A stretch of 64,000 nt of DNA. Source: Leucoraja erinacea. Taxonomy: Eukaryota. The DNA is taken from the NCBI RefSeq assembly GCF_028641065.1, contig NC_073391.1, forward strand, positions 11,160,001 to 11,224,000. The letters are read 5' to 3'. Of this stretch, positions 1 to 62,310 are shown one piece after another. The notes under the pieces were generated by a model that was given only the letters and a program-made list of their open reading frames with translations, did not search any database and was not told the DNA's origin. The stretch's first letter is position 1. Every line of letters starts with the position of its first letter. The translations under genes and the position numbers were made by a program.

Positions 1-1100
1 GCCATTGATTGAGATACGGCCCAATGTGATGGTGTCATCTGCAAACTTGTAACCGAAGTTAGAACAGAATTTAGCTGCAGAGTAAAGAGCATCTAAGGAA
101 TATCGCGGGAATGAGCACACAGGTCTTGCAGGGGATCATTGTTGAGAATTATCAAGGTGAAGTTGCAGAGGTGGATGCTGACTCCTAGGTCCAGGAGTTT
201 GAAGTTGTGTTTAGGTTGGAATTATGGTGTTGAAGGCAGAGCTAGAGTCAATAAATGGGAGGTACACAAAAATGCTGGAGAAACTCAGCGGGTGCAGCAG
301 CATCTATGGAGCGAAGGAAATAGGCAACGTTTCGGCCCGAAACGTTGCCTATTTCCTTCGCTCCATAGATTCTGCTGCACCCGCTGAGTTTCTCCAGCAT
401 TTTTGTGTACCTTCGACTTTCCAGCATCTGCAGTTCTTTCTTAAACACGTCAATAAATGGGAGTCAGACATAGGTGTTCTTGTTGTTCGGGTGTGACAGG
501 GATGAGTGTAGGGTCTGGAAGATGGCATTTGCTGTGGGCCCATTGCTGTGAAAGGCAAATTGCAGTTGATCAAGGCTGTCGGGCAGGGTGGAGTTGATGT
601 GCGCCATGACCACTCTTTCAAAGCACTTCAAGGGGATGGGTCAGAGGCAATGGATGGCAGTCATCAAGACACTCCGTCGTGTTTGTCTAAGGCTCCGGGA
701 TGATAGTGGTGTTCTTAATATCTCAATTTGGAGGAGGGGGAGGAGAAAGATGTCAATGAATATATCTGGTCTGTTCAGATGATGAGGATACAGCCGACTA
801 GGCCAGTCTCTATCTGTGTGTTCACTCACATAAGGCCAACCTGGTGTTTATGATGATGACTCGGGAACAGTGCACCCAGGCTGTAGGGGTGGGTGATGTA
901 ATACTACTGACTTTCAGATCAGAATTAGCATAGAATGCAGTGAGTTCATCAGGAGGAGTCCGTTGTTGCCAGTGATCCTGCTCAACTTCACTTTGTAGCC
1001 TGTTAAAGCATGCAAGTCTTACCACAATTGAAGGGGTATCTCTGTGGTTAGCCTGGGATTCTAACTTTGTGTGGGCATGTTTTCTGGCATCCCTAATAGC
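1..1100 (-). mobile_element. Decayed Rex1/Babar-like non-LTR retrotransposon RT region
   Basis: Sequence parallels the younger copy at 44306-45680 (GGTGTCATCTGCAAACTTG is the reverse complement of a KFADDT-coding stretch; also TCAAAGCACTTCA); many stops; interrupted by the 262-448 insertion. Confidence 0.65.
262..448 (+). mobile_element. Short Penelope-derived insertion with fold-back palindrome, flanked by 15-bp TSD
   Basis: GTCAATAAATGGGAG at 247-261 and 449-463; 75-bp inverted arms 261-335 and 337-411 with one mismatch; same unit as the 3' part of the Penelope copy at 47563-48145. Confidence 0.85.
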
Positions 1101-1984: not shown

Positions 1985-2172
1985 ATGGTTTTCTCCAGGT
2001 ACTCCGGTTTCAATCCAACATCCCAAAGTCGTGCAGGTTTGTAGGTTAATTGGCCCCTGTAAATTGTCCCTAGTGTGTGGGATAGAACTAGTGTGTGGGT
2101 GATCAATGGTCAGCATGGACTCTGCCAGCCGAAGGGCCTTTTTCCACGATGTATCACTAAACTAAACTAAAA
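1985..2172 (+). mobile_element. 5'-truncated V-SINE
   Basis: Core and tail GCCGAAGGGCC...(CTAAA)n shared with the other SINE copies. Confidence 0.8.
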
Positions 2173-2178
2173 TCAGTC

Positions 2179-3854: not shown

Positions 3855-4245
3855 TTCTGGCAATGAAGGAGGCCAAGGACAGACACGTTGGTGTGGCAAT
3901 GGGAAGGAGGGTTAAAATGGTTATCAATTGGGAGCTTCAAGTAACCATGGTGGACAGAGCGCAAATGCAAACATTTACCCCTCTTTCCTCTTCACCCTTC
4001 CACCCTGACACCTCCAAAAAGTTTAAAAGAAAAACTAACTTCAAGTAGCCCTTTCCCTCACTCTATCCCCTCCCCTTCCCAGTTCTCCGACCAGTCTTAG
4101 TCTCCGACTACATTGAATCTCTGTAAGCCCACTCCCCTGACATCAGTCTGAAGATGAGTCTCGACCCGAAATGCTACCAATTCCTCTCTCCAGAGATGCT
4201 ACCTGTCCCGCTGAGTTACTCCAGCATTTTGTGTCTATCTTCAAA
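3855..4245. mobile_element. Penelope-like fragments: antisense endonuclease C-terminus, then sense 3' repeat with hammerhead-like motif
   Basis: 3855-3970 matches the reverse of 47700-47820; CAGTCTGAAGATGAGTCTCGACCCGAAATG at 4144-4173. Confidence 0.7.
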
Positions 4246-4615
4246 ATAGTTAAACATTGTTAATTTATATTCTGCCAGCGTGGCGCCTATGTTTATTCAT
4301 CATGCTGAGCAAATGGATAATGTAAGTGAGTGAACTAGAACATTTATGTCTTTAAACTCAGAGTCACGTGTTAAAGTGTCGCCAGCATTGGGTGTGTTGA
4401 TGGAGAAAAGCCATTGATAAATGTAGCTTAATTTTTAATTAATTTGCGTACCAACACCAATTTGTCTCCAAGAAAAGCTCTACACTAAGAGAAAAGATCA
4501 GCTGTGATCCTGATAAATGAAGGAGCTTGATGTTCTGAAAGACAAAGCAGTTTTGATGTATGGCCTTTTCAAATTGGTGTTTCTTAACTAATTCTGTGAC
4601 TGTACCAAATGATAA

Positions 4616-5715: not shown

Positions 5716-5815
5716 TTCTGTCTAAAATACTCTGTACAAGTGGCGTCTCCTCTCACTATGTCGCACAGACATCAAACTTATTTCCTGTTGTGTCCATGAA
5801 TATAACTTGCTTGGC

Positions 5816-6032
5816 AGACACAAAAAGCTGGAATAACTCAGCAGGTCAGACAATTTCTATGGAGAAAATTAATAGGTGACATTTTGGGTCAAGAAACTTC
5901 TCCTGAAGGAGGGTCTCGACCCGAAACTTTACCTCTTCCTTTTCTCCAAAGGTGCTGCCTTTCCTGCTGAATTGCTCCAGCTTTTTGTGTTTATATTCAG
6001 TTTAAACCAGTGTCTGCAGTTTCATCCTACAC
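5816..6032. mobile_element. Inverted pair of Penelope 3' repeats with hammerhead-like motif
   Basis: Antisense copy 5816-5901 joined to sense CTGAAGGAGGGTCTCGACCCGAAAC at 5903. Confidence 0.75.
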
Positions 6033-6732
6033 AATATATCTTGCTTGGTTGGCCAGATATTTTCTTTTCCAATAGACTGCCAAGTGCTAGAGTACCTCAA
6101 CAGGTCGGGCTGTACCTATGGAGCGAATGGTTAGGTGATATTTTGAGGTTGGGAACCATTTGAGACTTTAGTCAAACTTGGACAAATGTTTTGGTCTCTG
6201 AGAACGCGCACACAAAAAAAAAGTGATCATAATTTTTTTAGTAAGAACATGGCCTGCGCTTGTAGTCAAATGAATTCTCAGTTCATTTATTTTACTGCAG
6301 CACATTTCTCCTTTATCCTTCCTGTCCTTGATTAGGTTTCCTATTGATTCCTTCACATCTACCAAACCCTGCAGCGTCCTCCCAGTGTGATACTGGTTGA
6401 TAATAAAGATAGCTCAATAATAGCTAGCTGAACAATTACGGCATATCTCCGAGAGCTAACTATTTAAATAAAAATGATTCTTTAAATCTTTGCATCTTTT
6501 ATGTCTTTGGAACTTTCGCAGTCAATTTAGCAGAAAAAAAAACAAGTACTTTTCGGACTCACTACAGTAACTCTTCAACTTTTGCATGTCGTTGAAATGG
6601 GTTCTTAAAATAAAGACAACCTCTCATCTTATTAAGAATGTAAGAATGACATCCACCCTTCCTGAAAGAAATTTGCAAATTACCACCAAGAGAGAATTTG
6701 GTGACCAGTACAAAGGAGGCCATGAGTTCCTA

Positions 6733-13574: not shown

Positions 13575-13905
13575 GAAGAAACTGCAGATGGGGTTTACAA
13601 TAAAAGACACAAAGTGCTGGAATATTCATTGCCATGGCTTCACAATTCTATCCTCATCTATCATCTTCTTATCCCACAAGTTTTGTATTTTCCTCTCTGG
13701 GCTTTATCCAACCATCTGCTAACCAAAAAAAAACCTTTCACCTCTATCCACCTCTCATTTTCCAGGCTTTGTCCTTCCTCCACCTTTCTTCCAGCTTTCT
13801 CCCCACTCCCACCCTCACCTCAATCCGTCTGAAGAAGGGTCTTGACCATGTTCTCCAGAGAAGTTGCGTGCCACACTGAGATATTCCAGCACTTTGTGTC
13901 TTTGC
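13575..13905. mobile_element. Penelope-derived 3' repeat remnants
   Basis: AACTGCAGATG...GACACAAAGTGCTGGA antisense piece and CTGAAGAAGGGTCTTGACC sense piece. Confidence 0.65.
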
Positions 13906-14450: not shown

Positions 14451-14734
14451 GTACATCCAAACATGAGAACAGCTTCTTCCCCATTGCTATCAGATACCTG
14501 AACCTATCACCTCTTTCACACCTCCTTCCCAAAGGTGCTGTCGTGTATTGCATTGTATTGTATTGTATTGTATATCTTTATTGTCATTTCATGTGAATAC
14601 TTAGGAAATGACAATAAAGATATACAATACAATACAATACATGATAGTACCTTTGGGAAGGAGGTGTGAAAGAGGTGATTGGTTCAGGTATCTGATAGCA
14701 ATGGGGAAGAAGCTGTTCTCATCTTTGGATGTAC
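14451..14734. repeat. 284-bp near-perfect palindrome (arms ~130-140 bp, 14-nt loop) in a Rex-like remnant
   Basis: 14451-14590 is the reverse complement of 14605-14734 with a few mismatches and a difference in (TATTG)n copy number. Confidence 0.95.
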
Positions 14735-19434: not shown

Positions 19435-19934
19435 AGGCACAGGGAATTGCAGATGCTGGTTCACAAAGAAAGACACAATATGCTGGAGTAACTCAGCTGA
19501 TTGGGTAGCAAGAGAGGGTTGGGTGGGATGGGGGGGGGGGTAGCTTAAAACCTAACAGTATGAACATACAATTTTCCAATTCCAGGTAAATAACCAACTT
19601 ACCCCCCCCCCCCCCCCCCCCCCCCCCCCACCTTTCCCTGTGCCCCTCATAGATTTGCATCCATTTCCTTTGTTCCCTCTCTCCCTGTCCCCTTCCACAT
19701 ATAATGCTTCTTCTGACTTCACAATTCGCCCTTCTTCTGTCCTTATCTTATTCTTTAGTAACTCGTCAGTTTCTTTGTTGAACTAAATTAAGGCGCATGT
19801 TGCAATCAAAAGCGCTTGAACAATTGGTTGGGAAGAAAGCCAAACTGTAAGAAAGACGACTGCCCATGTCTCATCTCTGACCTTTGTCTAACCATTTATC
19901 TATCACCCCCCACCTCCCCTCACCTATCCACCTA

Positions 19935-19965
<31 letters not shown>

Positions 19966-20080
19966 ACTTTCCACCATAACCAGTCTGAAAAAGGATCTTG
20001 ACCTGAAACGTCACATCCCAGTTTCCAAGTTCTCTAGAATGACTGCGTGGTCCATTGAGTTACTCAAGCACTTTGCATCT
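19435..20080. mobile_element. Penelope-derived remnants with poly-C tracts
   Basis: Antisense unit 19435-19510; sense unit with CAGTCTGAAAAAGGATCTTGACCTGAAACGTC at 19981-20012. Confidence 0.65.
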
Positions 20081-20384: not shown

Positions 20385-21790
20385 ATGCTGGGGCATTTTG
20401 AGATCACAAGGAGATGATGTTGCATATCTTGAAAGCATTGAAGTGGATAAGCCCTCAGGGCCTGATTGTGTCTATTCCATGTTATTGAGAGACACAAGGG
20501 ACTTTGACAAAGATGTTTGTACCCTCTCTTGCCACTGGCAAAATCCCAGTCTGGAGAGAGGTTAATGTTGTTCCGTTGTTTAAAAAGGGAAATAGAAATA
20601 ATCCAGGAAATTATAGCCTATGCGTCTCACATTAATGGTAGGGAGGCGAGTGGAGAGGAATCTTAGAGACACAATTTCAATGCATTTGGAAGATAATGCA
20701 CTAAGTGGAGACAGCTTATCTTTCTGCGGTAGTTTGTGTCTCACAAAGTTGATTGAAATGTTTGAGGAAGGTGATTGATGCGGGCACAACAGTGGATGTT
20801 GTGTACAAGGACTTTGGTAAAGCATTTGACAAAGTTTCTCATGGTAGACAGATCCAGAAGATGAAGATACATAGGATCCATGATGACTTGTCGGTCAGAT
20901 GCCAGTGGGAAGAAGGTTCTCGATCCAAAATGTCAACCATTCCTTCTTCCCAGAGATGCTGCCTGGCCCGCTGAGTAAGTCCAACATTTTGTGTCTATCT
21001 TCAGTATAAACCAGCATCTGCAGCCCCTTCCTACACATCCATGATAACTTGGTAGTTTGTATTCAAGCCTGGCTTGTCCATAGATGGCAGACGGTAGTGG
21101 TGGAAGAGTTGGCCGGAGGTCTGTGACCAGTCGTGTCCCATCTGTGCTGGAATCTCTGCTGTTTGTGACGGATGAAAATATGTGTGGATTGGTTAGTAAG
21201 TTTGCAGATGACTCAAAAGTGGTGGAGTTGCTGACAGTAAACTAGGCTATCGAACGGTACAGCAGGAGATAGATCAGTTACAGATATGGGCAGTGAAATG
21301 GTAGAGTGAAATGCCTTAGAAGTAATCCAGACAAGTTGGGGAAGTATACATATAATAGCTTTATCTTGCACTAAATGTTATTCTCTTAAACATGCATCTG
21401 TACACTGTGGATGGCACAATTGTAATCATGTATAGTATTTCTGCTGACTGGTGGTAGCACACAACAATAGCTTTTCACTGTATCTCAGTACATGTGACAA
21501 TAAACTAAACTAAACTAAACGGATTGTTTTCTCTGGAGCATTGGAGGCCAAGCGGAGACCTTAGAAGTTTATTAAATTATGAGAGGCATGAATAGTGTAG
21601 ACAGTCAGAACCATTTTCCATTGTTGGAAATACTAGAGGGCGTAGTTTTAATCTCAGAGGGGGAAAGTTTAAAGGAGATGTATGGGGCAATAATTTTTAC
21701 ACATAGTAGTAGGTGGTTGGCAGACGCTGCTGAGGTGGTTGTGGAAGCAAATATGTAAGTGCCGAATAAAAGGTTTTTAGAACATGCAAG
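20385..21790 (+). mobile_element. Decayed CR1 LINE ORF2 interrupted by a Penelope unit (~20905-21037) and a Rex-type tail (~21350-21520)
   Basis: VDVVYKDFGKAFDKVSHGR in ORF 20753-20974; AAGTTTGCAGATGAC encodes KFADD at ~21198. Confidence 0.85.
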
Positions 21791-23477: not shown

Positions 23478-23800
23478 ATATACCTGAAAGTGGATAATTC
23501 AATGTTCATCCCATTGAATTGCTATGAAATATGAGATGCTATTCTTCCAGATTGTGAGTGGCCTCAGTCTGGCAATGGAGGAGGCCAAGGACTGGCAAGT
23601 CACAAAAGGAGTGGGATGGGAAATTGAAATGGCTGGCAGCCTAGAGCTGCAGTTGGCCCTGGTGGACAGGATTACGTGTTCAACACAGCAGTTGTCTATG
23701 CTTGGGCTTAGTGATGAAGAAGAGACCATATTGAGAGCACTGAATGCAATGGAGGTTGGAGGAGATGCATGTAAACATCTTTCTCTGGAAGGATGGGGAT
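23478..23800 (-). mobile_element. Decayed Penelope GIY-YIG endonuclease fragment
   Basis: Reverse homologue of 47590-47890. Confidence 0.7.
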
Positions 23801-25187: not shown

Positions 25188-25360
25188 ACTGAAGATAGAC
25201 ACAAAAAGCTGGTGTAAATCAGCGGGATAGGCAGCATCTCTGGAGAGAAGGAATGGGTGATGTTTCGGGTCGAGACGCTTCTTCAGACTAAGGGAAACAA
25301 GAGATATAGACAATGATGTAGAGGCATAAAGAACAATGAATAAAAGATTTGCAAAAAAGA
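25188..25360 (-). mobile_element. Penelope 3' repeat with hammerhead-like motif
   Basis: GTTTCGGGTCGAGACGCTTCTTCAGACT at ~25262-25289 reads CTGAAGAAGCGTCTCGACCCGAAAC on the minus strand. Confidence 0.8.
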
Positions 25361-26682: not shown

Positions 26683-26878
26683 CACAAGGAACTGCACTTG
26701 CTGGAATATTGAGTAAAACATAAAGTGCTGGAATATCGCAGCAGGTCAGGCAACATCTCGGGAGGATATGGCTAGGTGATATTTCAGACTGAAGAAGGGT
26801 TCCAAAAGGAAACATCGCCTATCCATGTCATCCAGCGATGCTGCCTGGCCTGCTGAGTTACTCCTGCACTTTGTGTGC
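26683..26878. mobile_element. Inverted pair of Penelope 3' repeats
   Basis: Antisense and sense units joined at TTCAGACTGAAG (~26783-26794). Confidence 0.75.
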
Positions 26879-27971: not shown

Positions 27972-28660
27972 AGAGTGTAACCTATTAGCAGCAGTGTGGG
28001 TGCAGAGTGATCCAACGAGTAATGCTACTACTCACAGATCCAATGATCCTGGTTCAATCCTGAATTCCAGGGAAATGTGGAGTTTGCATTTTCTCCAAGA
28101 GACTGCATAGGTTTCTCCCAAGTGTTCCAGTTTTTCCCTACGTCCAAGTGACATTCCGATTAATCGGTGGCTGTAAATATTACTGCTTAGAACAAGGGGG
28201 AGAGGTAAGAGAATCAGAGAGGCCATTAATGACATATGAGAAAGAAGAGATTACAGGGAAACAAGTGTGGGAATGGGATGGATGTTATTGCCCAGAGAGT
28301 TTGTGACATGTTTTCTGTATTATAAGAAAAATGTGAAAATATAGTCAAATTTATTTTCATTAGCACAGGTAAGGTGACGTTCAACAAAATCCCTTGCTTG
28401 CAGCAACATCTTGGGCATATAAACTTAGACAAATACAAAATCCAATTATACATAAGCAATACTACATAAATATAAATTATGATATCAAATGATGCCTGCT
28501 AGAGATGAATCACGCTGAGCTGTTAAACTATCTGATCATGAAGCTGAATCTGTCAGGATTAGTGTGGAGCTCAGGAAGGGACATGCCTAGTCCGAACAAG
28601 CCTGATTTAGGAGCAGAACCAAATTTGAAGAACCTCCAAACAAACTATGCGATGAGGACA

Positions 28661-28751
28661 CACAAAAATGCTGGAGAAGCTCAGTGGGTGCAGCAGCATC
28701 TATGGAGCGAAGGAAATAGGCAACGTTTCGGGCCGAAAGCCTTCTTCAGAC
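28661..28751 (-). mobile_element. 91-bp hammerhead-bearing Penelope-derived insertion with 14-bp TSD
   Basis: ATGCGATGAGGACA (28647-28660) and ATGTGATGAGGACA (28752-28765); minus strand reads CTGAAGAAGGCTTTCGGCCCGAAACGTTG. Confidence 0.85.
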
Positions 28752-29324
28752 ATGTGATGAGGACATGTGATCAGGACATGTGGGAACTAAAAAGAGCACG
28801 AGAGCCATTCAACCACAATCCCCCACTCCCCAACCCCCACCTACCTCCCCTGTCCAGTCCGCCACTCTATAAGTTCATGGGTGATCTGATTACAACCTCA
28901 ACTTAGTGTTCTTGCCAACTCCCAATAACAGTTGACACCATGGCACGTGCATGAAAAATACTTAATGACTGCTTCTGCTTTTGGCTCAGGAAGAGAGTTT
29001 TACTCTCTCTAGGGGCAAATATAATATGCTGTACTTCTGCTGACACCTTATTTTTAAACGGTGAACCTCTAGGTTTAGGAACATGCAAGCACCAGAATTG
29101 ATGTGGATTTATAACGTTAAGATTCTGCTGTCTGTCTACATTACAGGCCCACGCATGCAAAGACCTCATTGTGCTGTGGAGCTTGGAGTGCTGGCTGAAG
29201 AGTGGCAGGAGCAAAATGAGTGTGAGGAGGGCTGCTGGAGGTATGTAGGTTTGAATATGAGGATACCATCAGTATCCATTGCATTAGCCCTGTATTTCAC
29301 ATGAACACATCAACATATCTTTAG

Positions 29325-33348: not shown

Positions 33349-33854
33349 ATGAAAGAAATACTGCTTTGCATGTGAACGCAGTGACCTCAGTCAAACAATG
33401 GACAATATCCAAACTTCCTGCACAAATTTGATGAAGATACATTTGTGATAACTCCCTCCCCAAACAAGGCACGCACTGGCTTATGAAACTCAGTATAAAA
33501 ACGTTTCTCCAGCCAAATGCAAGAATATGCAAGAATCTTTGCTTCCTGGGACATCACAACTGTCAACTTTGGCTTGGAGTGTGGCTGAGAAGGCAAAAGA
33601 ATGGACAAATGTAATATAACTATTCCACACATAGGGCAACAGACACCTTAAATGGATGTCAGCTGATGACCAGGAATTTTAACGGAGGATTAAATCATTT
33701 TTGATAAGTAAACCAAGTGAGAAATGTGTGTGGTGAGTTTTCTGTTCTGGTTTGGAATTCTTGGAATGACTAAATAGACCTGGTCTGAAGAAGAGTCTCG
33801 ACCCGAGACATCATCCATTCATTATCTCCAAAGATGCTGCCTGTTCCACTGTTA

Positions 33855-38150: not shown

Positions 38151-39604
38151 CATACGTTACCTATATGTGCTTCCCTTCCCCCACAATTACTATAATGGTT
38201 CTAGATGACACTAACACCTTGTCAAGCACAACTGGAAATAAATGCGGGTTTTGCCAACAACATTCATACCCACATAGAAATAAAACAGTAAGGGTACTGT
38301 GTTAGCAGATGTTCCAACTCTTTTAACTAACTGTGCACATTTTTACTGAAAGAATAATACTATTATAACTAAACCACGAATATCTTAAGAATCATGTTTT
38401 AGTTGTAATAATTTAAGGTAATTAAATTTTCACATGATACTTAATAAATCTGCAATATTTAACAAGAAAGGATCACCAATAGAAAGACAACTTGAAGAAT
38501 GCATTAAAAAATTGCAAATAACCAAATTAATTCCGAAGACTGGAACTGATCTGATTAAGAATCACATGCATTGTCCCAAGTTATAGCCCATTGTTTTAAA
38601 GCAACTGAATATTCATATTGTTTATAAAATCAAAGAAATTTACTGCAGACAATTCTTGGCCATTTGGTTCAAAGTAATCATTGCAGACAACAAGAAGGGC
38701 AACGAGGTCTAACACAATAATCTAACTTTAGCCTCATGAGTATTAAAACATTCAGTGCATATTCAAGTCTGATTTAAATATAATAAATGATTTTGTCTCA
38801 GCCATTTCTCTCAGGCAGTGAATTATAATCCTCACCACCCACTGGGTAAAAAAGAAAACATTTTAGTTCTCATCTATATTTTAACTTTTTCTCCCTCTTT
38901 ATTGACCTCTCCATTAAGATCAATAGGTCCTTTATGTCCATTTGGTGTCAGTGCTTCATAAATCTATATAACCCTGCTACTATTTTTGTTGAAATGCATA
39001 AATATTAAGATAGGTGAAGGAATGTGTTACCCAATCAAACATCGTAGCATGGAGGTGTACTCTACTCTACCCAGTGGAGCTTGCTGCATTTTCTAAACAT
39101 TAAATTTAATATTAATATTTGAAAAGGTTTGCAGGGCTAACTGACCTCCCTTTTAAGATTTTTAATACATCTGAATATCAGAGTTTTGTAATTTTTTTTG
39201 CTTGTTAAAATTACTTGCAAATCTAACTGTGGGCAGCATGGTGGCACAGTGATAGCGTTTCTGCATTACAGCGCCAGAGACCAGGGTTCGACCGTGACTA
39301 CGGGTGCTGACTGGAGTTTGAACCTTCTCCCCGTGACCTAGGTAGGTTTTCTGTGGGATCTTTGGTTTCCTCCCACGCTCTAAGACGTACAGGTTTGTAG
39401 GTTAATAGTAAGATTAAACGAGAACTTATCAGTTTGAAGTTTGATCTTTATTTTATGAGGAGTTACGATCCCAACCCTCCTCATAAAAATACAGCTGGTA
39501 GTTCTAGTTCTCGAATCTTACTATCCTCAGTTCATCAACTGTTATCTGTGATTTCACACCGCTGCTTTGAAGATTGACGCGCATGCGGGCTGGTGGATTC
39601 TTGA

Positions 39605-40358
39605 AGATGGTCTGAGCTGAAACGTTTTTGTGCGGTTTCCTGTGACTAATAAATAATGCTAGTTCTAGCCCCCTAAGACCCTTGGTGATCTTAATATATT
39701 GCTGGAGGTGTGTGACCACACATAATCGGGGGTCCAAAGGGCATGCCATAAATTGTAGCTTAAGACCGGAAGTACCTGGTCTGCTCTGTTTGATTGGATC
39801 ATATACAAAAAAGGTTATACCACTGGCAGAAGTGATCATCCTATCCAGACGTAGCTTCTGCAATGACTGGACCCATTGTGCTGATACTAGTGCCACAAGC
39901 ATCACTACTATGTAAGTGAGCCGGAGTAGGGACAGGGATGTAGCTGGAGCACATTGGCCAAGTAGTGTTAGTACCATACCTACATCCCATATTTCCGTAT
40001 ATCTGGGCCTGGGAGGGTTTAGGTTGAATATACCCCTCATGAATCTGGATATTAATGGATGAGACCCAACGGAGTGTTGACCTGAGCTTGGCAACAAGTA
40101 TGATGACAACACACTTCTGGCACAATTCAGACCACTGTAGCTCAATCTCTCGTCAAAATTAAGTTTTGAGAGAAATTCCAAAATGTTGGTTATGTGCGCT
40201 GTCTCATACGTGATATTAGTTTGCAAACAGAACTCTTCCCATTTCTTTATGTAGGAGATGTATTGTTTTGTGGTGCTGTCTCTCTGGGCTGTAGTTAGCA
40301 CATCCACTGTACGGTCAGATAGTCCAATCCCAAGGAAAGGTCTACTTAGAATCTGCAA
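39605..40358 (-). pseudogene. DIRS tyrosine recombinase, C-terminally truncated
   Basis: STTKQY, YSGLNCARSVLS, HPLISRFMRGIFN, IWDV, AQWVQSL (W where the catalytic R is expected), KQSRPG; homology stops at NVSAQTI, so HxxR, W and Y are absent. Confidence 0.9.
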
Positions 40359-40376
40359 ACCAATACGTTTAGCCGA

Positions 40377-41153: not shown

Positions 41154-42276
41154 TCAACCAAAATGTGTGTTAGAGCTATGCCCAATATTGAACTTCCACC
41201 ATTTTAATTTGGCAATGGCTTCAGCCAGTAAATGCATAGGCCTGTCAAAGTAGCCTAAATGGTGTTTGAGTGCCTGTACCTTTGCTTGTTGTAATTGTTG
41301 GTAATGCAAAGACCCAAATTTTGTGGCTGGGAAAGCTGCCACCAATTTGCCAATTAAACTGGCCATTTATCGAATGAAAGGCTGCTGCTTTGTTATGAGG
41401 TAATTACAGCCTTCTATTCACTCCAATCTTTTGTGACAAGGCAGAGTTACAGACATGTAAACAGAGTTAATAGTGAATCCCAAATAATCCATAACTCGGG
41501 ATGGTGTCAACATGGATTTAACTGAATGGATGAGAAACCCCAATCGCTCTAATAAGAGCTTGGTGGCTGAGACTGCTGAAATAGCCAATTCTGGAGTTTT
41601 GCCTATAATGAGGATATCATCCAAGTATGCCATTACTATGTGTTTTTGAGCTTGTCGCAGCACAAGTATTGGTTTCAATAATTTGATGAATAATCTGGGA
41701 GCGGAAGTTAGTTCATTAGGCAATGCTTTAAACTGCCATAGCTGCCCCATCCAGTTGAATTTGAAGTATTTTCAGTGATCCTTATGAATAGGTACTGAAT
41801 AGTATGCATCTTTGAGATCGATGCATGCCTTGTAACACCCTTTGGAAATTAATTGTTTGGCAGTAACAACATTTTCCATTTTGAAGTGGCTGTACTGCAC
41901 AAAGGTGTTGAGTTGGGTAGGTGTTGAGGATGACTCGGCATCCACCATCTTTCTTTTGTCTAGTCAATATATTGGACACAAATTGGTGAGATTCATGATT
42001 CGGCTTCTCAATTACCCTTTTTGAATATAATAATTGAATTTCAGCTTGTATATCCAAACTTTCTTGTTGTGAATGAACAAAGGTTCGGTTTGGAGTATGC
42101 TGCATGGGTGGAAGTGAATCTGAAAACTCAATTTGGAATCCATCTATACTGTGCAGTATAAACAAATCTGATGTTATCCAATGCCATTCATTCAAAAAGA
42201 AACGTAATCTCCCACCAACATGTGATTAACCCACACACCGCATGTTCCATAGAGAACCAGACCAACCTACCTCCAT
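41154..42276 (-). pseudogene. DIRS reverse transcriptase (frameshifted)
   Basis: WITSDLFIL, FVSNILTRQKKDGGCRVILN, FKALPNELTSAPRLFIK, AYLDDILI, YLGFTINS spread over ORFs 41782-42195, 41418-41750 and 41154-41366. Confidence 0.93.
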
Positions 42277-43414
42277 GGTTGCTGGTGGCCGAGCTTTGTC
42301 CTTGGCCGGTTCTATCTGTCCTTGAGCTGGTACTGGCTCCTGCAGACCATTTGCTGCTAGTAGAGGCATAGGGGTGCTTCCGTCGAAACGATGAATTTCT
42401 ATCTGCTGGTGGAGCTCTAAGTAGCCCCATAGCCTTTGACTCATCGTCCAACCCTTTGACTTGTTTGGACAGGTCTTCCCCAAACAAATAATTCAGCGGC
42501 TGCACATTTGTAGACCTGCATAATCCCGCATATTTGAGATTGAGGACAGGATGAAAGGCGTTTTTCTGAAAGCAATTTATCTGAAAATGTGCATTGCACA
42601 TCAGAGCCAATGCGTCCTGTTGTACCTCCGACAGGGAGCTTGCATCTACTGACCTGGCGAAGGCAGTGACCCCAGAAACTAGCAGGCTCAGGATCCTTTG
42701 GAGTTTAATCTCCTGAGTCTTGATGCCACCACTCATGTAACTCCAAATGGAGCTATTGACAGTCGGGACTCTGAGCGAGGCGCAGTTACTGGGTGTCTGA
42801 TATTTCATTGCCGTTTCCAGCATTACCTGCTCCTGTAGCTGGTGAGAAGTCAGGTAATTGATGCTGGCCGCCAATTCTGCGTCCAGTGGCTCACTGACTT
42901 GCGATGACATCGCAAATTTTGACACCATGGTGGGCACCTCTGCTTCATGTAGGTCTTGTGTCATGGAACATTCCAACATGCCACTAAAATGCGGGTCAGC
43001 CCAGGACTGATGACCTACGCTCCCTTCCTCAGACAGGGAGAAATAACGCAGCCCTGCACCAGGCGCTGCTGCGGGTCCCCGAGGCCCGTGCAGATATGAC
43101 TCGGCCATGGAGTATATCATGCTGGAGCATCTTATCCATAAGATGCTGCATTCAGGAAATACGTCCGTATTTGTGGGGGGCGAACCCTCCCGGCCGGACT
43201 CGTCTGAGTCAACCGGCCAGTTGGATTTCTGTTTGGCCTTCCTGACTTTTGGGGTAGCCAAGGTGCTTTCTGTCGGCACCGGATCCAAAGTTGCTGGCTG
43301 CACACCCAGAGACCGTGATGGTGAAACCGATGGCCGCCCGCTAACCGCATTCTCGCAGTCTTCTGTAGCGGTTCTCCCTGCGGCCCGTCTGGACTTCACC
43401 CTAGTCTTGTCCAT
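42188..43414 (-). pseudogene. DIRS ORF1 (gag-like)
   Basis: ~408 codons open from ATG 43414; PSNCASLRVPTVNSSIW and YLFGEDL motifs typical of DIRS ORF1; likely compensating frameshifts. Confidence 0.8.
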
Positions 43415-44305
43415 AGTTAGTACAATTCTAAAGCTGTAACAAGAAACGAAAAACAACCGCAGACTAAGTTCGATAACTTACCTGGAGGTCTTTAAACTTA
43501 CCGCTGGAGGAGCGACACGCCTACCAGCCAGTCGCGGCGCCATGCGTTAGAGGTAATGATGCGCATGCGGGCTGGCGTGTTCTTCGCGTAGTCACTAACG
43601 TGACTCCAAAGTAAAATTGGCGTGTTATATTTGTAAATTGTCCCTAGTGTGTGTTGGAGAGTGCAAGTATGTGGGGATCTCAGGTCAGCATGGACTCGGT
43701 GGGCCAAAGGGCCTGTTTCCACACTGTATCTCAAAACTAAACTACACTACACTCAATCAAATTATCAAACAACATGCTGCTCAACATTATGTTGCTCAAT
43801 TTATAAAGTAGATACCTGAGCTAGAAAATGGTCATGTAAATCAATTTTAGGTGTGATGTATCTTTCTCAAATATAAAAAAACTGGGACTTGTCTTCAACC
43901 AGTCTGTATTGCCTGAGACAATACAGTCTTTGGTGATGGAGTAGCCAGAGGCATCTTGACATCCTAAACTAATTATCAACTCATCAAGAGCAACACAAAC
44001 TAAATATTCTGATTCAGTGTAAATGAGATGGTGTGAAATTACATTATTTCCATGGTTAAAGGTGGAAGAGGGGTACTTTTGAATAAACTGACAGCAGAAT
44101 AGAAGGTTTCTCAAGTGGGCAACTGGGTAAACAGATATCTCCTCAATTTGTTTGTTACCTAATCTGCCCAGAAGGGGTAATCGATGTTGCCTCAAAAAAA
44201 ATCAGCAGCTGTTAGTTATTCAATAAGCCGAGTGAAAGCACACTGGTAAATCTGAAGAATGCCTTTTCCATAACATCCAGCACAACATTACAGCTACAAG
44301 AATAG

Positions 44306-45794: not shown

Positions 45795-46300
45795 CACAAA
45801 ATGCTGGAGGAATGGATGACGTTTTGGGCCAAGATCCTTCTTCAGACTGAGAGTCAGGGGAGGGGGAGATACAGAGATAAGGAAGTGTAAGGTGTGAGAA
45901 TGAGACATCAAAGGGGGTGAAGCTCAAGGAAAATGTAGATTAGATCACTGTTCTATGTTTTATGTTGAACTCTTATCGTGTGTTGTGTATTTTATTGAAT
46001 GTCTGTATGGTGATCACATTTCACTATTGCCCACTGGCACATGTGACAATCAATGTATCTTGCATCTTGTATCTTGTTCGTTAGGAGAAGGCGACAACAA
46101 AGCAAACAGACATAAAATGTAATCAGGGACGGTCGGGTCGGAGAACTGGGAAGTGGGATGGATGGAGAGAGAGGGAAAGCAAGGCTTACTTGCAGTTAGA
46201 GAAGTCAATATTCATACTTCTGGGGTGTAAGCTGCACAAGCGAAATATGAGGTGCGGTTCCTCCAATTTGCGCTAGGCCTCACTCTGACATTGGAGGAGG
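45795..46300 (-). mobile_element. Penelope 3' region with an inserted Rex-type tail (~45950-46075)
   Basis: Hammerhead-like motif at ~45818-45848; endonuclease C-terminal sequence at 46200-46300. Confidence 0.75.
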
Positions 46301-47562
46301 TCAGTGTGGGGATTTTTTGCAGCTTGCTCATATATGGAGTCTCCACCCCTCCAAAAACATGTGATATGGGGCAACGAGAAAAAATATCAAATACAATCTG
46401 AGGTCAATTTGGAGAAAAGCATCTGAGCAATTCTTCTCCAATCCTGGATTATGAAATAAAAACGAATGCAGGAGAACACAATAACCCCAAGCTGTCTGCA
46501 GTTACAGATAACCTCGGTAAAAGATAACATCCAGCCCCGTCAAAAGGGTGCCTCGCTTTCTATTTAAGTCACTCAACATCTCTTGTGAAGCATTGTTGAC
46601 AAATACAAGCTTCTGACACACAACTAGAAGTGATAACCTCTGAAAGATTTGGAATCCTTCATAAAATAGGACATGTTAGCGGATTTCTATGTATTGTCCC
46701 CATCATAAACTAGTCGCCTCAAGCAATTCGTATTCTTGGCATTTCATTTGTCGCTGGTTCAATTGCTGCAGCTAACAGCAGCACAAGCAATGACATAATA
46801 TAGTGTGGTACCGTCCACCATTCAATATGACAGCAATGTCTCTAAAAAGAGAGGAATTTTAAATCCACTTTAAAAAGAAAAAATGTCCATCGACAGTCAT
46901 CTCACTGCAAGCAAGGCCTGTCGATGAGTCATTTACATTCCTCCATTGGCAGTGTTCATACATGTGGCAGAGCTCACCCAAACATTTTGAATTTTAATTC
47001 AGACATTAACATAACATTTAATTTGCCAGAAGGCTGATGCTGTTTGCTCAACCAAGCTTCCTTTGGCTTGCTCTAGTAATTGTCATAGACTGCAGTCCAA
47101 AGTAACTCGATACTTTCCCATGAGTATTCACGATAAGACCCAGTGCAAACTGCAAGGTTTAGTAAATTTGTCCACATGCTCATTTCTTCTGAGCAGATTA
47201 CTTTATTATTTATCTTTGCTATCCTTCAACCTTCCAGAGGTGAAATGTTTTTTTTTTTGCAATATGACCTATCAGAATCACTTTTCAGCAAGATAAATAT
47301 GTCTATTTAAGATGACCTCTTTTCAATGCCAGTTCTGAACACTGATCAGCTGATCCTTAAAGACTCCCACCTGTCAGATGTGGACTTACTTTTAACAGCT
47401 AACAGATTTTCTCTTCCTAGCTCTTGCCTGATAAAGGCGTAATTTTCCCAACCCCAATTTAGTACTTTCTCCCGAGGTCCAGACTTACCCTTCTTCAGAA
47501 CTACGTTAAAACTAAATTTGGAAATGCTACACTTGTCGCTTTACCTCCCCCCTTGACTCCAT

Positions 47563-48145
47563 TCAAGGACCCAAGCAGTGCGGCCGAGGATAACCTGCAC
47601 CACCTTCAACCTCATCTAATGCATCCACTGCTCTAGGTGTCTGCTGCTCTACATTGGTGAGACCAAACACAGGCTTGGCAATCGCTTCGCCCAACACCTC
47701 CGCTCGGTTCGCAATAACCAACTTGATCTCCTGGTGGCTCAGCACTTCAACTCCCACTCCCATTCCGAATCTGATCTTTCTGTCCTGGGCGTCCTCCATG
47801 GCCAGAGTAAGGCCCACTGTAAATTGGAGGAGCAGCACCTCATATTTCACTTGGGTAGTTTACACCCCAGCGGTATGAACATTGACCTCATATTTCAGGT
47901 AGTCGCTGCTTTTTCTTTCTTTCAACTCTCCTCTCCGACAGCTCACTGTCCCGCCTCTTCCTTTCTTCTCTCTCCCCCCCCCTCACTGCCCACCCCCCCA
48001 CCCCCACATCACTGAAGAAGAGTCTCGACCAGAAACGTCGCCTATTTCCTTCGTTCCATAGATGCTGCCTCACCCGTTGAGTTTCTCCAGCATTTTTGTC
48101 TACCTTTTTGTCTACCTTAGATTCTTCAGCATCTGCAATTAAACA
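47563..48145 (+). mobile_element. Penelope-like element 3' half: GIY-YIG endonuclease plus terminal repeat with hammerhead motif
   Basis: Translates NLI*CIHCSRCLLLYIGETKHRLGNRFAQHLRS, VAQHFNS, KLEEQHLIFHLGSLHPSGMN; CTGAAGAAGAGTCTCGACCAGAAACGTC at 48012. Confidence 0.9.
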
Positions 48146-50444: not shown

Positions 50445-50575
50445 ATTCCGAAGAAGAGTCTCGACCCGAAATGTCTCCCATTCCTCTCTGCAGAGATGCT
50501 GCCCATCCCGCTGTCACTCCAGTATTTTGTGTCTACCTTCGATTTAAACCAGCATCTACAGTTCTTTCTCACACA
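50445..50575 (+). mobile_element. Penelope 3' repeat unit
   Basis: CCGAAGAAGAGTCTCGACCCGAAATGTC followed by the usual unit. Confidence 0.8.
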
Positions 50576-51493: not shown

Positions 51494-51792
51494 GGGTGGT
51501 CATGGTGGCGCAGCAGTAGAGTTGCTGCCTTACAGCGAATGCAGCGCAAGGGATCCGGGTTCGATCCCGACTGTTTGTACGGATTTTGTACATTCTCCAT
51601 GTGAACTGCGTGGGTTTTCTCCAAGATCTTCGGCTTCTTCCCACACTCCAATAACATGCAGGTTTGTAAGTTAATTGGCTTGATAAATGTAAAAATTGTC
51701 CCTAGTGTGTGTGGGATCGCTGGTCGGCGCGGACCTGGTGAGCCGAAGAGCCTTTTTCCGCACTGTATCTCTAAACTAAACAAACTCTAAAC
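51494..51792 (+). mobile_element. HE1/V-SINE
   Basis: A-box-like GGTGGCGCAGCAG, B-box-like GGTTCGATCC, core and tail. Confidence 0.9.
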
Positions 51793-51961
51793 CATCTATC
51801 CTTCAACCAACATAGCTCAGAGAGGTTTTCTGACAAAAATCACAGAGTAACTTTGCTGTTGCAATTTAGCTGATATTAATTCTAATTCCAACACTGACCC
51901 ATTAAAAAAAATCTAATGGCCTTTAAAGCACTTTTACCAAGGTTGAGTAAGTTGAGTAAAC

Positions 51962-52000
51962 TTAGTCTGAAGAAGGGTTTCGGCCCGAAACGTTGCCTAT
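51962..52000 (+). ncRNA. Minimal type I hammerhead ribozyme motif (best-preserved copy) in a ~80-bp Penelope-derived insertion
   Basis: CUGAAGA-A-GGGU(UUCG)GCCC-GAAAC-GUU at 51967-51994; insertion flanked by TTGAGTAA repeats; activity untested. Confidence 0.7.
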
Positions 52001-52776
52001 TTCCTTCGCTCCATAGATGCTGCTGCACCCGCTGAGTTTCTCCAGCTTTTTTGTGTACCTTGAGTAAGGTGAATTGTTCTACTTAATCTCTTTGATTCAT
52101 CTACATGATCTAATGGAGGTTTCTTGATAGGATAAACATTACTGATTGCAGCAGGTTAATCTATAAGAAGCCGTTTTATTTGTGCATACATTAATTTAAA
52201 GACATTGTTAACTGTAGGATTTTAACACACATCTGCCCTATTCTTAAAGCAATTTCACATCACAGATATTTTCCTTCTTAATTTGGATGGGTAAACACAT
52301 GAACTAATATATACATAAAATACAGTAAACAGTTATAACAACATTGTGAAAACAAATGTTTCTATTTACAACTTTCACCCATCTGCAACTATTCTTATTT
52401 GTTGAGAACTCAAGCTCAGTTTTGTCCTTGAACATCACTAGGGGATGATAACAACTCATTTCAAGACATACCTCCATTACTACTTCACCACATTCATTTC
52501 AGTAGAATATTAGAAAACTCCTAAATCTGGCAATACGTTTCAAAATGCCAATTCTCTTGTTGCTCCCCCTCTATGATTCTTCCTCCTCTCCAGGATGCCT
52601 TATTGCCACCTTCCACTCAGCCAACAATGAACCATTCTACATTTCCTTGAACATTGTCTGCTTTGATCTGTCATTTTCACACCTTACCCTTCCATATCTC
52701 TAATTTCAATCTCCCTGACTCTCAGTCTGAAAAAGGGTAATCTCTCTCCAGAAATCCTGCCTGTCCCGCTGAGTAA

Positions 52777-52830
52777 AGGGCCCCTTAGTTCTCATTGATG
52801 ATTCTCGTAGATCCAAAAATCTCCAGCCCT
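52777..52830. mobile_element. Minimal Harbinger-like remnant in a Penelope unit
   Basis: GAG-TAA-AGGGC...GCCCT-TTA-CTCCAGC interrupts the unit consensus GCTGAGTTACTCCAGC. Confidence 0.55.
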
Positions 52831-53792
52831 TTACTCCAGCATTTTGTGTCTACACAATCTAATGTTATGATTTTGTTCTACTTTGCTTGTTTGAAGCACA
52901 CAGTAACACTAGGCTCTCACATCACTGTCCACTTTTTCTCATCAGATCAGTAAATCATTTTTTCTCCCTTGTTATTATTATGTATACTGATAATGAAATA
53001 AGAAACTTGCAACATTCAGTCTATACAAATATTTCAATCAAGTCTCCAACCGTCTTGTTTCCTGGTTTGTCTGGAGCCAGCGGGAATTTTGATGACATTG
53101 TGTTTTCGTACCTATGGCTGAAAGTCCCCAAATGGTGCCAAAGGTTACAGGGAAAGGGAAGACAATGGGGTTGAGAGGGAAAAACAGATCAGCCACAGTT
53201 GAATAGTGCAGCAGACTCGATGGGCCGAATGGCCTAAGCCAGCTCCTAAATATTATGGTCTTAATATATAATTTGCAACAATGAACACACAGATCAATTT
53301 AAAGTACCATGTGACTTGGGCCACGGCACAATTGATACATGCACAAAGATCAAACACTTGGAAAACCACTGCTGCTAATTCCAGAAAAAGAACAACAATA
53401 TGTCATGATAGAAAAGCAATAATTACTCCAGAAATCATCCTATTTAGCCAACTTTCATTCTTATAGATAATTATCATGATAGTGGTTTTCTTTGTGTAGG
53501 CAAACATTGAATAAAAGCACCATCATGATTCAGCATGATAAACCATGAGCAGTTCTGTGTAAAACGTTACTTTTATTTATGCATCCGTCCAAGAAAAAGT
53601 TTGGGAAACACAAACAAAGCGTGGAAATTAGATTAACAAAAGAAGCGTCTGTTCGTTTTGTTTGCATATGTTCCACAAAATAAAATCATATTGCACTTTT
53701 TAAAAATGTTAGTGTTCATTTCCTGCTTAAGGCCCACCTATCATTTAACTGCAGAAAAGTAGAATCATATGAGCAAAGTTTTAAGGTAGAAT

Positions 53793-54207: not shown

Positions 54208-54624
54208 AAGATAGAATATTGTGATTTTATTTATTCTGCATTTTAACTATGAGTTTGTAGTTTGTCAGTGGTGTTCGTCCATGTTTGGAAAGATCAGGAG
54301 AGATGGCTATTTATCCCATTGCACTTACAGTGTTTGAGTGTGTGAGCCAAGGTGGTTTGTTAACCTTCTGTTAAACTGTTTCCAGAGCACTTACATGTGA
54401 AGAAAGAAACTGCAGGTGCTGGTATGTACTGAATATCGACACAAAGTGCTGGAGTAAAACAATGGGTCAGGCAGCATCTCAGGAGAAAAAGGCTGGGAGC
54501 AGGCAGAATCAAAGAGGTGGAGCAGTGAGAACATCTGTGAGAGGAGGATAACTTCTTCAAAGTAGGCATACTGTACCTTGAGGAGATTTTGCAGTGGAGC
54601 AAACAGGGTCTGAGAAAAGTCACC

Positions 54625-54813
54625 GTAGACAAAAATGCTGGATAAGCTCAGCGGGTGAGGCAGCATCTATGGAGCGACGAAAATAGGCGACGTTTCAGGC
54701 CGAAACACATTGCCTATTTCCTTTGCTCCATAGATGCCGCCTCACCCACTGAGTTTCTCTAGCATTTTTGTCTACCTTTGATTTTCCAGCATCTGCAGTT
54801 CCTTCTTAAACAT
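54625..54813 (+). mobile_element. Short Penelope-derived fold-back insertion with 14-bp TSD, nested in an older Penelope unit
   Basis: TGAGAAAAGTCACC (54611-54624) and TGAGAAAAGACACC (54814-54827); inverted arms centred at ~54698. Confidence 0.82.
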
Positions 54814-55945
54814 TGAGAAAAGACACCCATCCTTTTTCTCCAAATATGCTGCCTGACCTGCTGAATTACATCAGCATTCTGTGTCTACCTTCGGCACTTA
54901 CTGTACATGTGAGACTTGATTCAGGAGAACTGATGGCAAAGAAACTGCTTCTGATAACATGGAAAACAGATGATGTAAAACAAAGCCCAATTTGCTGTGC
55001 TGGTATCAAGAATTCAAACAATAGATTGGTTTTAAAACCATGTCTGAACTCCTGCTCCCACTCTTTGTTTTTTGGATTGCAAGATAATAGAAGAGTGGCT
55101 GGTGTAAGCAAGTGGATGAATATATTTCCCTCCTATTGGAGCTCTGACCATATGAGTAGTTGATGATTTGTGACATTGCATATCATTCCCTTAGGGTTGA
55201 TTCTCCACCTCAATGTCCTGAAGACCATCTGTACTTGCTCAAGTATAACCAGACATTTACAAGCTGTCTAGGAATTAACAGAAACCTTAAATCATTACTT
55301 CTTAGGCCTGCATTTTATCAGGTGTACTCTTGTGCTCTTCTTTAATTCTATATAGTCAGAATAAACTATCCATTGTTACATGAATAATGCTCTAAATTCC
55401 TAAGGACATAAACGTTAGGAGCAGAATTAGGCCATTCAACCCATCAAGTCTACTCCACCATTCAATCATGGTTGATCTATCTCTCCCTCCTAACCCCATT
55501 CTCCTGCTTTCTCTCCATAACCCCTGACACCCGTATCATTGCATCCTATTGCATACTATTGCTAGACAGCATCTTATTCTGTTGGCATGCTGTGACATAA
55601 AGAATAATGCAGGGAGAATTCATTCATTTTATTTAAGCTTTAATATTTACAGGAAATAGATGATGCACGTTGCCATTAAAGCGGAGAAACAAGGGACTGC
55701 AGATGCTGGTTTACAAAAAAGGAATCGAAGTGTTGGAGCAATTCAGTGGGTCAGGCAGCATCTCAGGAGAACATGGATAGGTGATGTTTCCAGAGTACAT
55801 ACATTTAAGACTTGATTCAGTTGGTTGAAAATCTAATCAGTCTGAAGAAGTGTCCCGATCCAAAATGTCCCCTACCCCTGTCCTCCAGAGTTGCTGATAG
55901 ATCTGCCGAGTTATTCCAGCACTTTGAGTCTTAGAGAAAAAGGAG

Positions 55946-57789: not shown

Positions 57790-58050
57790 TAATCTTTCCA
57801 GGTGAAGCAGCAATTCACTTGTGCTTCTTCCAATCTAGTGTACTGCATTCAGTGCTCACAATGTGACCTCCTCTACATTGCAGAAACCAGACGGACTTGT
57901 GGAACACCAGTGTTCAGATAGCAAGCTTCCAGTTTTTCAATTCTCCATCCCACTCCTCCTCTGCCGTTCCTGACTGTCGACCTTATGCACTGTTATATTG
58001 AGGCCCAACGTAAGCTTGAGAAACAACACCTCACCTCATGCCTGCAACAA
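57790..58050 (+). mobile_element. Decayed Penelope GIY-YIG fragment
   Basis: AATCTAGTGTACTGCATTCAGTGCTCACAATGTGACCTCCTCTACATTGCAGAAACC encodes NLVYCIQCSQCDLLYIAET. Confidence 0.8.
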
Positions 58051-58578: not shown

Positions 58579-59085
58579 ACACAAGGAACTGCAGATATTC
58601 CATTTGTTTCACCTATTTGCCTCCACCATCTTCTCTGCTACATACACTAACTTCTTTTCTCTCTTTCCCTATTCGGAAGAAGGGTTCAAGGTCCAAAACA
58701 CTAGCTACAAATTCTGCCAAACCTGCTGAGCATTCCAGCATTTTATTTTGTTTTTTCTTTCAGATCCCGAGCACCTGAAGTAGGTGGTGCATTATTTTCA
58801 AATAATATTGAAGTCATATCTGATCTGAGCTTCTATGCGTTCAATGTACAAACTTTGTACTCTTTTGCAATCAATGTAATGAAGATGTGCATATTAAATT
58901 CTGTTGAGCCAGTACAGTTACCTTCAAACATATCATTACATATTTCTACCAATTAATCAAATGTGACTTCAAAATTTCAGTTTTGAAAGAAGCATTTTTA
59001 CAATCCAACTTAAGTTGTTGCAAACATGGCTTCACCATTCAAGCTGTCTTCATCATTTGTTACAATAACGGGCCGCAGTACTAAC

Positions 59086-61992: not shown

Positions 61993-62182
61993 GTGCAGGA
62001 AGGAACTGCAGATGCTGGTTTAAACCGAAGATAGACACGAAAAGCCGGAGCAACTCAGCTGAACAGACCAGCATCTCTGTAGCATAGGAATAGATGACGT
62101 CTCAGATCCTTCTTCAGACTGAGGAAGAATGGTCTCTCAGTCAAATGAAGGGTCTTCACCCGATACGTCACCTATTCCTTTG
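61993..62182. mobile_element. Inverted pair of Penelope 3' repeats
   Basis: Antisense unit ending CCTTCTTCAGACT, then sense TGAAGGGTCTTCACCCGATACGTCACC. Confidence 0.7.
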
Positions 62183-62310
62183 AATTCCACAGAGAAATCA
62201 AATGTAATTCCAACCATTTGCAAGCGCAACACACAGCATTGGAGACAAGTTCCCATTACCGTCCCTAAGAAAAGTCATATGAAAAATTTCAACAAAGTGA
62301 TATAGTGGTT

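Follow-up and report, generated by a model that had tools for sequence, protein, structure and literature searches.

The closest described relatives of the repeats analyzed here are the hammerhead motifs in the pLTRs of metazoan Penelope-like elements (PLEs; Cervera and De la Pena 2014, PMC4209133). According to the accessible part of that study, they combine a type I core with an extra nucleotide that separates position 9 from 10.1, a G10.1-C11.1 pair and a palindromic 15.2-16.2 segment, are located in the pLTR and occur mostly as dispersed single motifs; these are called probably truncated elements, and no fixed 5' boundary is described in that part. The genomes treated there contain 2,000-9,000 motifs, and the Schistosoma motifs have a stem II of 7-8 bp and a stem I of 4-5 bp. 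For Poseidon_Ac of Anolis, the available sections of Frangieh et al. (2024, PMC11167929) report that the Penelope reverse transcriptase (RT) begins internally, 3' of the hammerhead, at two tail-defining sites, that the template needs RNA downstream of these start sites, and that insertion proceeds without hammerhead cleavage, with uncut RNA as template. In the accessible text of both papers, the making of full-length and tandem PLE copies and the purpose of the hammerhead appear as an open problem.

The present study concerns a window, i.e., the whole analyzed stretch of 64,000 nucleotides from Leucoraja erinacea (contig NC_073391.1, positions 11,160,001 to 11,224,000), in which a preliminary description had reported a swarm of minimal hammerheads moving as ribozyme-bounded, non-autonomous retro-units. 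The focal motif (51967-51994) contains the core boxes, the extra nucleotide after A9, the G10.1-C11.1 pair and the palindromic 15.2-16.2, which confirms its assignment to the Penelope-type minimal type I hammerheads. It differs from the Schistosoma motifs in its stem II of 4 bp and its stem I of 2 bp in cis, and the family is larger than those of the cited genomes, with about 40,000 exact motifs and, by estimate, 360,000 motifs in all. We propose that the tiny TSD-flanked units are probably dead ends, namely run-off ("strong-stop") cDNAs that the RT of the element would produce on an RNA with a predicted start about 3 nt before the hammerhead core.

Copies in the window and in the genome

An HMM built from 67 natural copies recognized 31 arms in the 64-kb window, 19 of which cover the motif. 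The resulting density of one per 3.4 kb agrees with the earlier estimate of one per 3-4 kb. In 280 kb of the genome (28 randomly placed 10-kb stretches) the same HMM found 72 arms, 46 of them over the motif, and extrapolation from these stretches gives roughly 360,000 motifs in the 2.19-Gb assembly. Exact motif matches number 40,789 genome-wide. A fuzzy scan of the window detected 12 copies within four edits of the consensus given in the preliminary description; ten block shuffles gave 0-1.

All 18 places listed in that description harbor a copy, but the exact consensus is present only at 51967, and the copies at 13829, 52727 and 62117 miss part of the motif. They sort into three stand-alone units with a TSD (51967, 28749, 20907), five arms of inverted pairs, seven longer truncated copies and three short decayed ones for which no TSD was found (Table 1). 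The notion of stand-alone TSD-flanked insertions thus holds for 3 of the 18, whereas seven are longer 5'-truncated Penelope ends that have 54-492 nt upstream of the motif in common with other loci. The focal insertion, originally drawn as 51962-52041, corresponds to a unit at 51964-52059. An empty allele at 51964 was sought and none was found; one contig set spans the left and the right junction and thus carries the insertion as well. The Rfam scan of the window, the kind of Infernal search that had been suggested, gave no hammerhead family at E<=1 and only sub-threshold miRNA matches on hairpins.

Table 1. Positions of Penelope-derived copies and their parts in the window; relative positions count from C3 = 0.
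Feature	Position	Strand	Remarks
Focal 96-nt putative run-off unit	51964..52059	+	3' terminus of autonomous Penelope-like pLTR, -3 to ~+93 from C3, without tail
Minimal type I hammerhead motif	51967..51994	+	sequence; numbering after the accessible part of PMC4209133
Hammerhead parts	core C3-A9 51967-51973; extra A 51974; stem II 51975-51986	+
Hammerhead parts	G12-A15.1 51987-51990; palindrome 51990-51993; H17=U 51994	+
Predicted cut	51994/51995	+	in cis stem I of only 2 bp
TSD, left copy, 9 nt	51943..51951	+	exact; scored as 13 nt, 1 mismatch, by TSD search
12-nt filler between TSD and unit	51952..51963	+	mostly second imperfect TSD copy
TSD, right copy	52060..52068	+	first two bases fit element end too (microhomology)
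Stand-alone unit from -2 (28751-28661)	28647..28765	-	TSD 14 nt, 1 mismatch; stem II broken
Stand-alone unit with tail, ~12-nt filler	20876..21051	+	TSD 15 nt, 1 mismatch; core decayed
Fold-back insertion, two arms, one tailed	247..463	.	15-nt TSD; without CUGA; absent from the preliminary description
Fold-back insertion around 5903 motif	5799..6048	.	16-nt TSD, 1 mismatch
Fold-back insertion	54611..54827	.	14-nt TSD, 1 mismatch; without CUGA; absent from the preliminary description
Old fold-back pair around 26789 motif	26716..26877	.	TSD searched, none found
Old inverted pair around 55842 motif	55728..55928	.	flanking repeat 8 nt, weak
Head-to-head decayed pair (62117 minus, 62142 plus)	62030..62192	.	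HMM
5'-truncated Penelope-like copy	47520..48108	+	GIY-YIG C-terminal fragment 47590-47895, 3' UTR, motif 48012
Longer truncated copy, core decayed	4035..4241	+	~113 nt upstream of motif common with other loci
Longer truncated copy, internal deletion in motif	13683..13901	+
Longer truncated copy, core decayed	19931..20074	+
Longer truncated copy, stem II broken	25192..25359	-	~73 nt upstream common with other loci
Longer truncated copy, deletion 3' of motif	45806..45952	-
Longer truncated copy	52599..52850	+	motif deleted past first bases, split by insertion
Short decayed copy, interrupted 3' part	33782..33853	+
Short decayed copy with tail	50446..50575	+	TSD searched, none found
Very old decayed copy	58673..58744	+

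The window contains further repeats. A SINE with a tRNA-like head, which we take to be of a type common in sharks, lies beside the focal unit (51500-51795) and ends in short CTAAA repeats. Minus-strand open frames of 290 and 429 aa at about 39507-40376 and 42191-43477 resemble parts of a DIRS-type retrotransposon. Additional decayed Penelope-like GIY-YIG fragments are located at 3848-3967, 23512-23775, 46201-46302 (minus) and 57817-58032 (plus), and a long near-perfect inverted repeat at 14504-14681 carries an (ATTGT)n microsatellite in its arms and has sub-threshold miRNA matches only.

The parent element

The repeats are identified as 3' ends of an autonomous Penelope-like family of ~3.9 kb with RT and GIY-YIG domains. 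Within the window, the motif copy at 48012 lies after a C-terminal GIY-YIG fragment, whose Pfam match (E 0.017) is under the curated cut-off. A query with an RT fragment yielded 111 scored matches from 24,909 candidates, many with open frames of 640-900 aa, and in most of 20 fetched elements the exact focal motif is found ~120 nt past the stop codon of long ORFs for RT and endonuclease (EN). The identical 3' end follows EN-bearing ORFs in the loci L093, L098, L100, L107 and L108. In several loci RT and GIY-YIG share a single frame of 775-878 aa, and the order is RT, CX4CX2C linker (seen in the translation of L119) and GIY-YIG; the Pfam matches on fragments (RVT_1, E 6e-6; GIY-YIG, E 0.002-0.017) are all under the curated cut-offs. 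Two motifs 3.2-3.9 kb apart are present in each of L107, L113 and L119, and a partial tandem layout that forms pLTRs is seen in L107, L113, L117 and L119. Linker and layout of the parent are putatively of the Neptune/Nematis type, a clade defined by a CX2-5CxxC linker before GIY-YIG according to the available text of PMC8557442. The whole unit aligns to the pLTR, there is no foreign head, and the stretch from 51964 to 52059 matches the 3' end of the RT/GIY-YIG-coding element; the Penelope derivation advanced earlier is therefore upheld.

Ends of the copies

Copies were collected genome-wide with a 23-mer anchor at +57 (C3 = 0), which was chosen to avoid selecting intact motifs. The end sample comprises the first 100 of 62,814 anchor matches, all in the first 3.7 Mb of one contig; it includes two duplicated pairs, fold-back arms are counted singly, and the flag that separates inverted from simple copies missed some fold-backs. 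The 5' ends were set by comparison with 85 natural references, and chance microhomology blurs the copy ends by a few bases. Units with identical flanks 70-75 kb apart (L024/L027 and L151/L153) point to a local segmental duplication in the sampled contig.

The 3' ends of the sample are bimodal: 59 of 100 are located at +88 to +101, 36 at +123 to +134 and five elsewhere. The concentration of 95 ends at about +95 or +130 is indicative of two RT start sites and a tail, as in the accessible account of PMC11167929. The two 3' sites are ~35 nt apart, the tail is optional, and 27 of the 100 arms were flagged as inverted. At the 5' side, 49 ends fall at -6 to +3, 15 at +4 to +13, 11 at +14 to +57 and three at -7 to -100, while those of the other 22 copies are scattered 112-1123 nt upstream. 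Of the 74 arms extending as far as +3, 49 thus end within 10 nt, and three of the other 25 do so in the next 94 nt (binomial p about 1e-46). The short class consists of 33 copies without and 16 with tail that end at one and the same 5' place, which argues for a stop fixed on the template and not by length. A TSD of at least 7 nt flanks 29 of 39 non-inverted short copies, with TSDs spanning 7-20 nt; at 60 random places, a looser TSD search reached a score of 8 or more four times. In family B, the break lies at the edge of the motif in about 11 of 30 copies (30 of 78,735 anchor matches, judged by eye).

Across the genome, exact matches in which a foreign base precedes -2, -3 or 0 number 4,156, 2,584 and 2,218, respectively. 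Inspection of 30 copies each of the -2 and -3 sets revealed one clear point mutant of a longer copy, whereas 30 copies of the 0 set included two or three point mutants and many fold-back arms. The expected signature of ribozyme-bounded units, a pile-up of 5' ends at the predicted cut (+28), was sought in the 100 copies and in the genome-wide counts and was absent: three of 100 ends lie close to it, at +29 to +32, and the cut-site count is 739 vs 1,013 at a control 4 nt away, both mixing point mutants with true breaks. The boundaries are accordingly non-random relative to the motif, as anticipated in the preliminary description, but the 5' ends accumulate 3 nt before CUGA and not at the cleavage site.

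A second cluster of 5' ends at +9 to +11 from C3 (11 of 100) contains many fold-backs. It likely marks a pivot for template switching, as the motif is self-complementary there across stem II and GAAAC.

Proposed run-off at an RNA 5' end

According to our proposed run-off mechanism, the endonuclease would nick the target and the RT would start in the 5'-proximal pLTR of the transcript, at +95 or +130, and 95-135 nt later run off the RNA where it begins, at the initiator-like TCAGT. Microhomology or a filler would serve to join the cDNA, in some cases together with an inverted second arm. For longer and tandem copies, the template would be a circular RNA or one with a start further upstream, and the hammerhead would be a passenger in the stubs that acts, if at all, on the full element RNA with a dimer partner or the protein of the element. 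The stubs lack the upstream pLTR and the ORF start and would not be copied again; they are most likely dead ends because they also lack the RNA that the anole system needs downstream of the start sites.

The 5'-end peak falls inside TCAGT, and YCAGT is kept in EN-linked families with differing upstream spacers. This sequence fits the initiator consensus YYANWYY and reads equally as a splice acceptor. An initiator-like TCACT is noted in Adineta pLTRs in the accessible part of PMC3846280. We regard the predicted RNA start just before the hammerhead core (-3/-2) as rather probable. The first bases of the unit are re-copied at 5 of 60 junctions (the regex matched 7 of 60, with a background of 2.3%), and these re-copied bases suggest reiterative copying at a template end. 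Re-copies of the first 9-20 bases between TSD and unit were observed in L207, L208, L211, L230 and L247 and also in L066 9621 and L342.

The main rival explanation is a roadblock, i.e., an RT started at +95/+130 on long RNA that is halted by a protein or structure at the pyrimidine tract or CAG edge, with about one third of the cDNAs reading through. A long C/T tract ending in YAG directly before the stop is present in all EN-linked families, and the intron of D. virilis Penelope ends at helix I in the accessible description of PMC4209133. The cap-type signal is also equivocal: at the -2 break, 44 of 100 copies have a G in front (expected 30%, p 0.002), which speaks for a template end, while the 31 of 100 at -3 are no excess (27%, p 0.23) although an initiator A would predict one. 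Among about six near-full-length copies at the 30 inspected of 74 junction-spanning copies none begins at -3, and this position is no more than a candidate start of the RNA for full-length copies. Copies that span the junction from tail to ORF nevertheless pass the site in 11 of 12 cases, as compared with 25 of 74 canonical copies (Fisher p 0.0002), which a simple sequence barrier would not predict. The re-copied first bases likewise suggest a template end, the stubs keep the AG that splicing removes, and their filler shows no common upstream exon. We therefore consider the roadblock unlikely. About 23 of the 30 junction-spanning copies (L253-L282) are short pieces with 3' ends at +170 to +311 and scattered 5' ends. 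Six such pieces reached +3 and only one stopped there; they fit the run-off model only by assuming another origin.

Two further candidates were rejected. Hammerhead cleavage at the nearby upstream AUC (-4/-3) would lack stem I/III pairing, and its U is not shared by every family. A spliced template is at odds with stubs that retain the acceptor AG and have no upstream exon in common. Piles of loose ends at -3 in reads and contigs represent embedded genomic copies instead of RNA ends and were not counted as independent support. RNA reads of a related species (poly(A)-type and single-cell), the type of evidence called for in the preliminary description, exhibited no pile of starts or ends at the site, which fragmented libraries need not show.

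A GT at the last codon of the ORF, a long pyrimidine tract and YAG before the hammerhead were observed in the window (47897-48011) and in L119 (7555-7410); such GT...YAG arrangements in several families look like a putative intron across the 3' UTR. In D. virilis Penelope, 46 nt separate the RNA start from the 75-nt intron that follows it (PMC2377424), and this intron ends at helix I according to the accessible part of PMC4209133. This start is located about 120 nt upstream of helix I, unlike the predicted core-adjacent start of the skate family.

The passage of junction-spanning copies beyond -3 (11 of 12) suggests that full-length copies probably use another template. One tentative extension, which we regard as possible but doubtful, is that linear mRNA, on which the RT primes close to the 5' end, gives strong-stop stubs only and that full-length copies need a hammerhead-cut circularized unit or tandem read-through RNA. 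If so, replication in vivo would depend on the ribozyme even though insertion in vitro does not, and the stubs, hundreds of thousands in number, would be a genomic record of the start site and the ratio of the two templates.

Alternative origins and functions of the stubs

The initial proposal of a self-propagating retrozyme or Penelope-dependent SINE, with ends set by the ribozyme, accounts for the discrete size, the own TSDs and the very high number of the units, and retrozymes derive from pLTRs according to the available text of bioRxiv 10.64898/2026.07.22.740005. Tail-bearing units retain a hairpin around the first 3' site, and a second round from read-through RNA is conceivable; rare direct dimers and one 42-bp triple occur elsewhere. 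The ends are, however, off the cut (3 of 100 near +28; 739 vs 1,013), and the first 100 of 62,814 anchor matches include no same-strand pair within 1 kb, as opposed to ten opposite-strand pairs within 800 nt. Tandem arrays with a complete hammerhead in each unit were thus not found in these copies, nor were unit ends set by cleavage. A small comparison of 13-nt haplotypes in 49 short and 22 long copies showed that 32 of the short copies match haplotypes of the long ones (the four commonest short-copy haplotypes plus a fifth), the others being singletons or one pair; own subfamilies apart from the autonomous partner were not seen in this small sample. Moreover, the units are flush with the TSD or a short filler, without the host flank expected from a read-through template, and no internal promoter was identified. 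Together with the identical end behind RT+EN ORFs, the shared haplotypes and the lack of head-to-tail pairs argue against a separate non-autonomous family; this reading is already largely refuted, and we rate it as quite improbable.

Locus L074 (5018-5195) contains three head-to-tail copies of the 42-bp motif, of which only the last has an intact core; it is a possible seed of a retrozyme-like array.

Irrespective of their origin, the stubs might serve the host as ribozymes by which read-through transcripts are cut or terminated, a role raised in the preliminary description. About 40,000 exact cores exist, and RNA of a related species carries the unit as a passenger, with 93% of 15,113 reads continuing into unlike sequence. 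Intact cores were, however, recovered in 1 of 19 window copies and 7 of 46 in the random sample, even by a loose test. At G12, 37 of 57 sampled copies retain the consensus base and 18 have changed from G to A at a CpG, and the C and G of the palindrome are kept in 39 of 58 and 36 of 58. G12 and the palindromic CG are thus among the least conserved positions, and the loss of the core is neutral decay via CpG. At the last pair of stem II, 12 of the 18 window copies have U-A and four have U-G; the reported alternation of both pairs is hence real, but the change is one-sided and not compensatory. Stem covariation, whose lack was named as a refuting observation, did not exceed shuffles in these copies (one pair changed on both sides, a level reached by 439 of 500 shuffles, and two U-A/U-G changes on one side only), in a test that has little power for one lineage of decayed copies.

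Folding gave z values from +1.28 to -0.50, i.e., no significant stability. The monomer is not predicted to adopt the hammerhead fold; stem I has 2 bp in cis, and in the MFE structure the core is bound by pyrimidines downstream of it. At the predicted cut, the youngest family carries GUU, a poorer cleavage triplet than GUC. In L190 (8832-8924) helix III reads AGCT for ACGT and is still palindromic, a single copy that may be due to chance. According to the accessible parts of the respective studies, helix I of D. virilis also has 2 bp, single minimal hammerheads show no cleavage in vitro and dimers little (PMC4209133), and cleavage of the anole hammerhead needed the protein of the element (PMC11167929). 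Judging from sequence, cleavage of host read-through RNA is unlikely for most copies and possible for a few young ones, and a general host function of the stubs appears very improbable. Plain 5' truncation of Penelope copies at random break points, as single motifs are read in the available part of PMC4209133, retains next to no probability overall: it holds for the long class with its 22 scattered upstream ends and is refuted for the short class by the 49 stops in 10 nt vs three in the next 94 nt.

Comparison with known systems

The element and its hammerhead motif are of known kinds. According to the review PMC6765202, dimer cleavage of small PLE hammerheads has been described by Lunse et al., whose sequence lists may already include the motif of the skate family. 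Searches of the open-access literature found no paper on this family or on a fixed 5' boundary. What seems to be new is the dominant TSD-flanked product with a 5' end fixed just before the core, and its contrast with copies that read past this site.

As far as the accessible sections of PMC8557442 and PMC3846280 allow a comparison, EN+ PLEs of the Neptune/Nematis type have the same RT, CX2-5CxxC linker and C-terminal GIY-YIG, and likewise show partial tandems, inverted 5' arms, a one-sided tail and TSDs. In Adineta, such elements have few solo pLTRs, some of which lack a TSD, and these were ascribed to recombination or deletion, whereas those of the skate are the main product and have TSDs and a sharp 5' end. 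Poseidon_Ac (PMC11167929, accessible part) likewise has two 3' sites past the hammerhead and a tail of 30-40 nt. It differs in its linker, which is of the Neptune/Nematis type here, and in its ORF, which begins in stem II, while the first ATG of a long frame in the skate follows the tail; in vivo run-off products with a fixed 5' point are not described in that part. Non-LTR retrozymes, which have been reported from one chondrichthyan genome, are likewise non-coding, pLTR-related and equipped with a type I hammerhead, but they form tandem units each with a complete hammerhead, in contrast to the dispersed monomers and head-to-head pairs of the skate (bioRxiv 10.64898/2026.07.22.740005, accessible part).

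The dominant insertion class with both ends fixed leads to the predictions that the RNA begins at -3/-2, that linear RNA is not used once cut, and that long copies have a template of their own. It also cautions that the very large hammerhead counts in such genomes mostly reflect decayed by-products and not functional ribozymes or a new SINE. In LTR retrotransposons, priming near the RNA 5' end generates minus-strand strong-stop DNA, a short cDNA whose end corresponds to the start of the RNA. If our reading is true, the skate stubs represent the TPRT counterpart of this intermediate: in both cases a short cDNA would extend to the RNA start, but the LTR strong-stop DNA is transferred in the particle, whereas in the skate the primer would be the nicked target DNA and the product would be integrated with a TSD.
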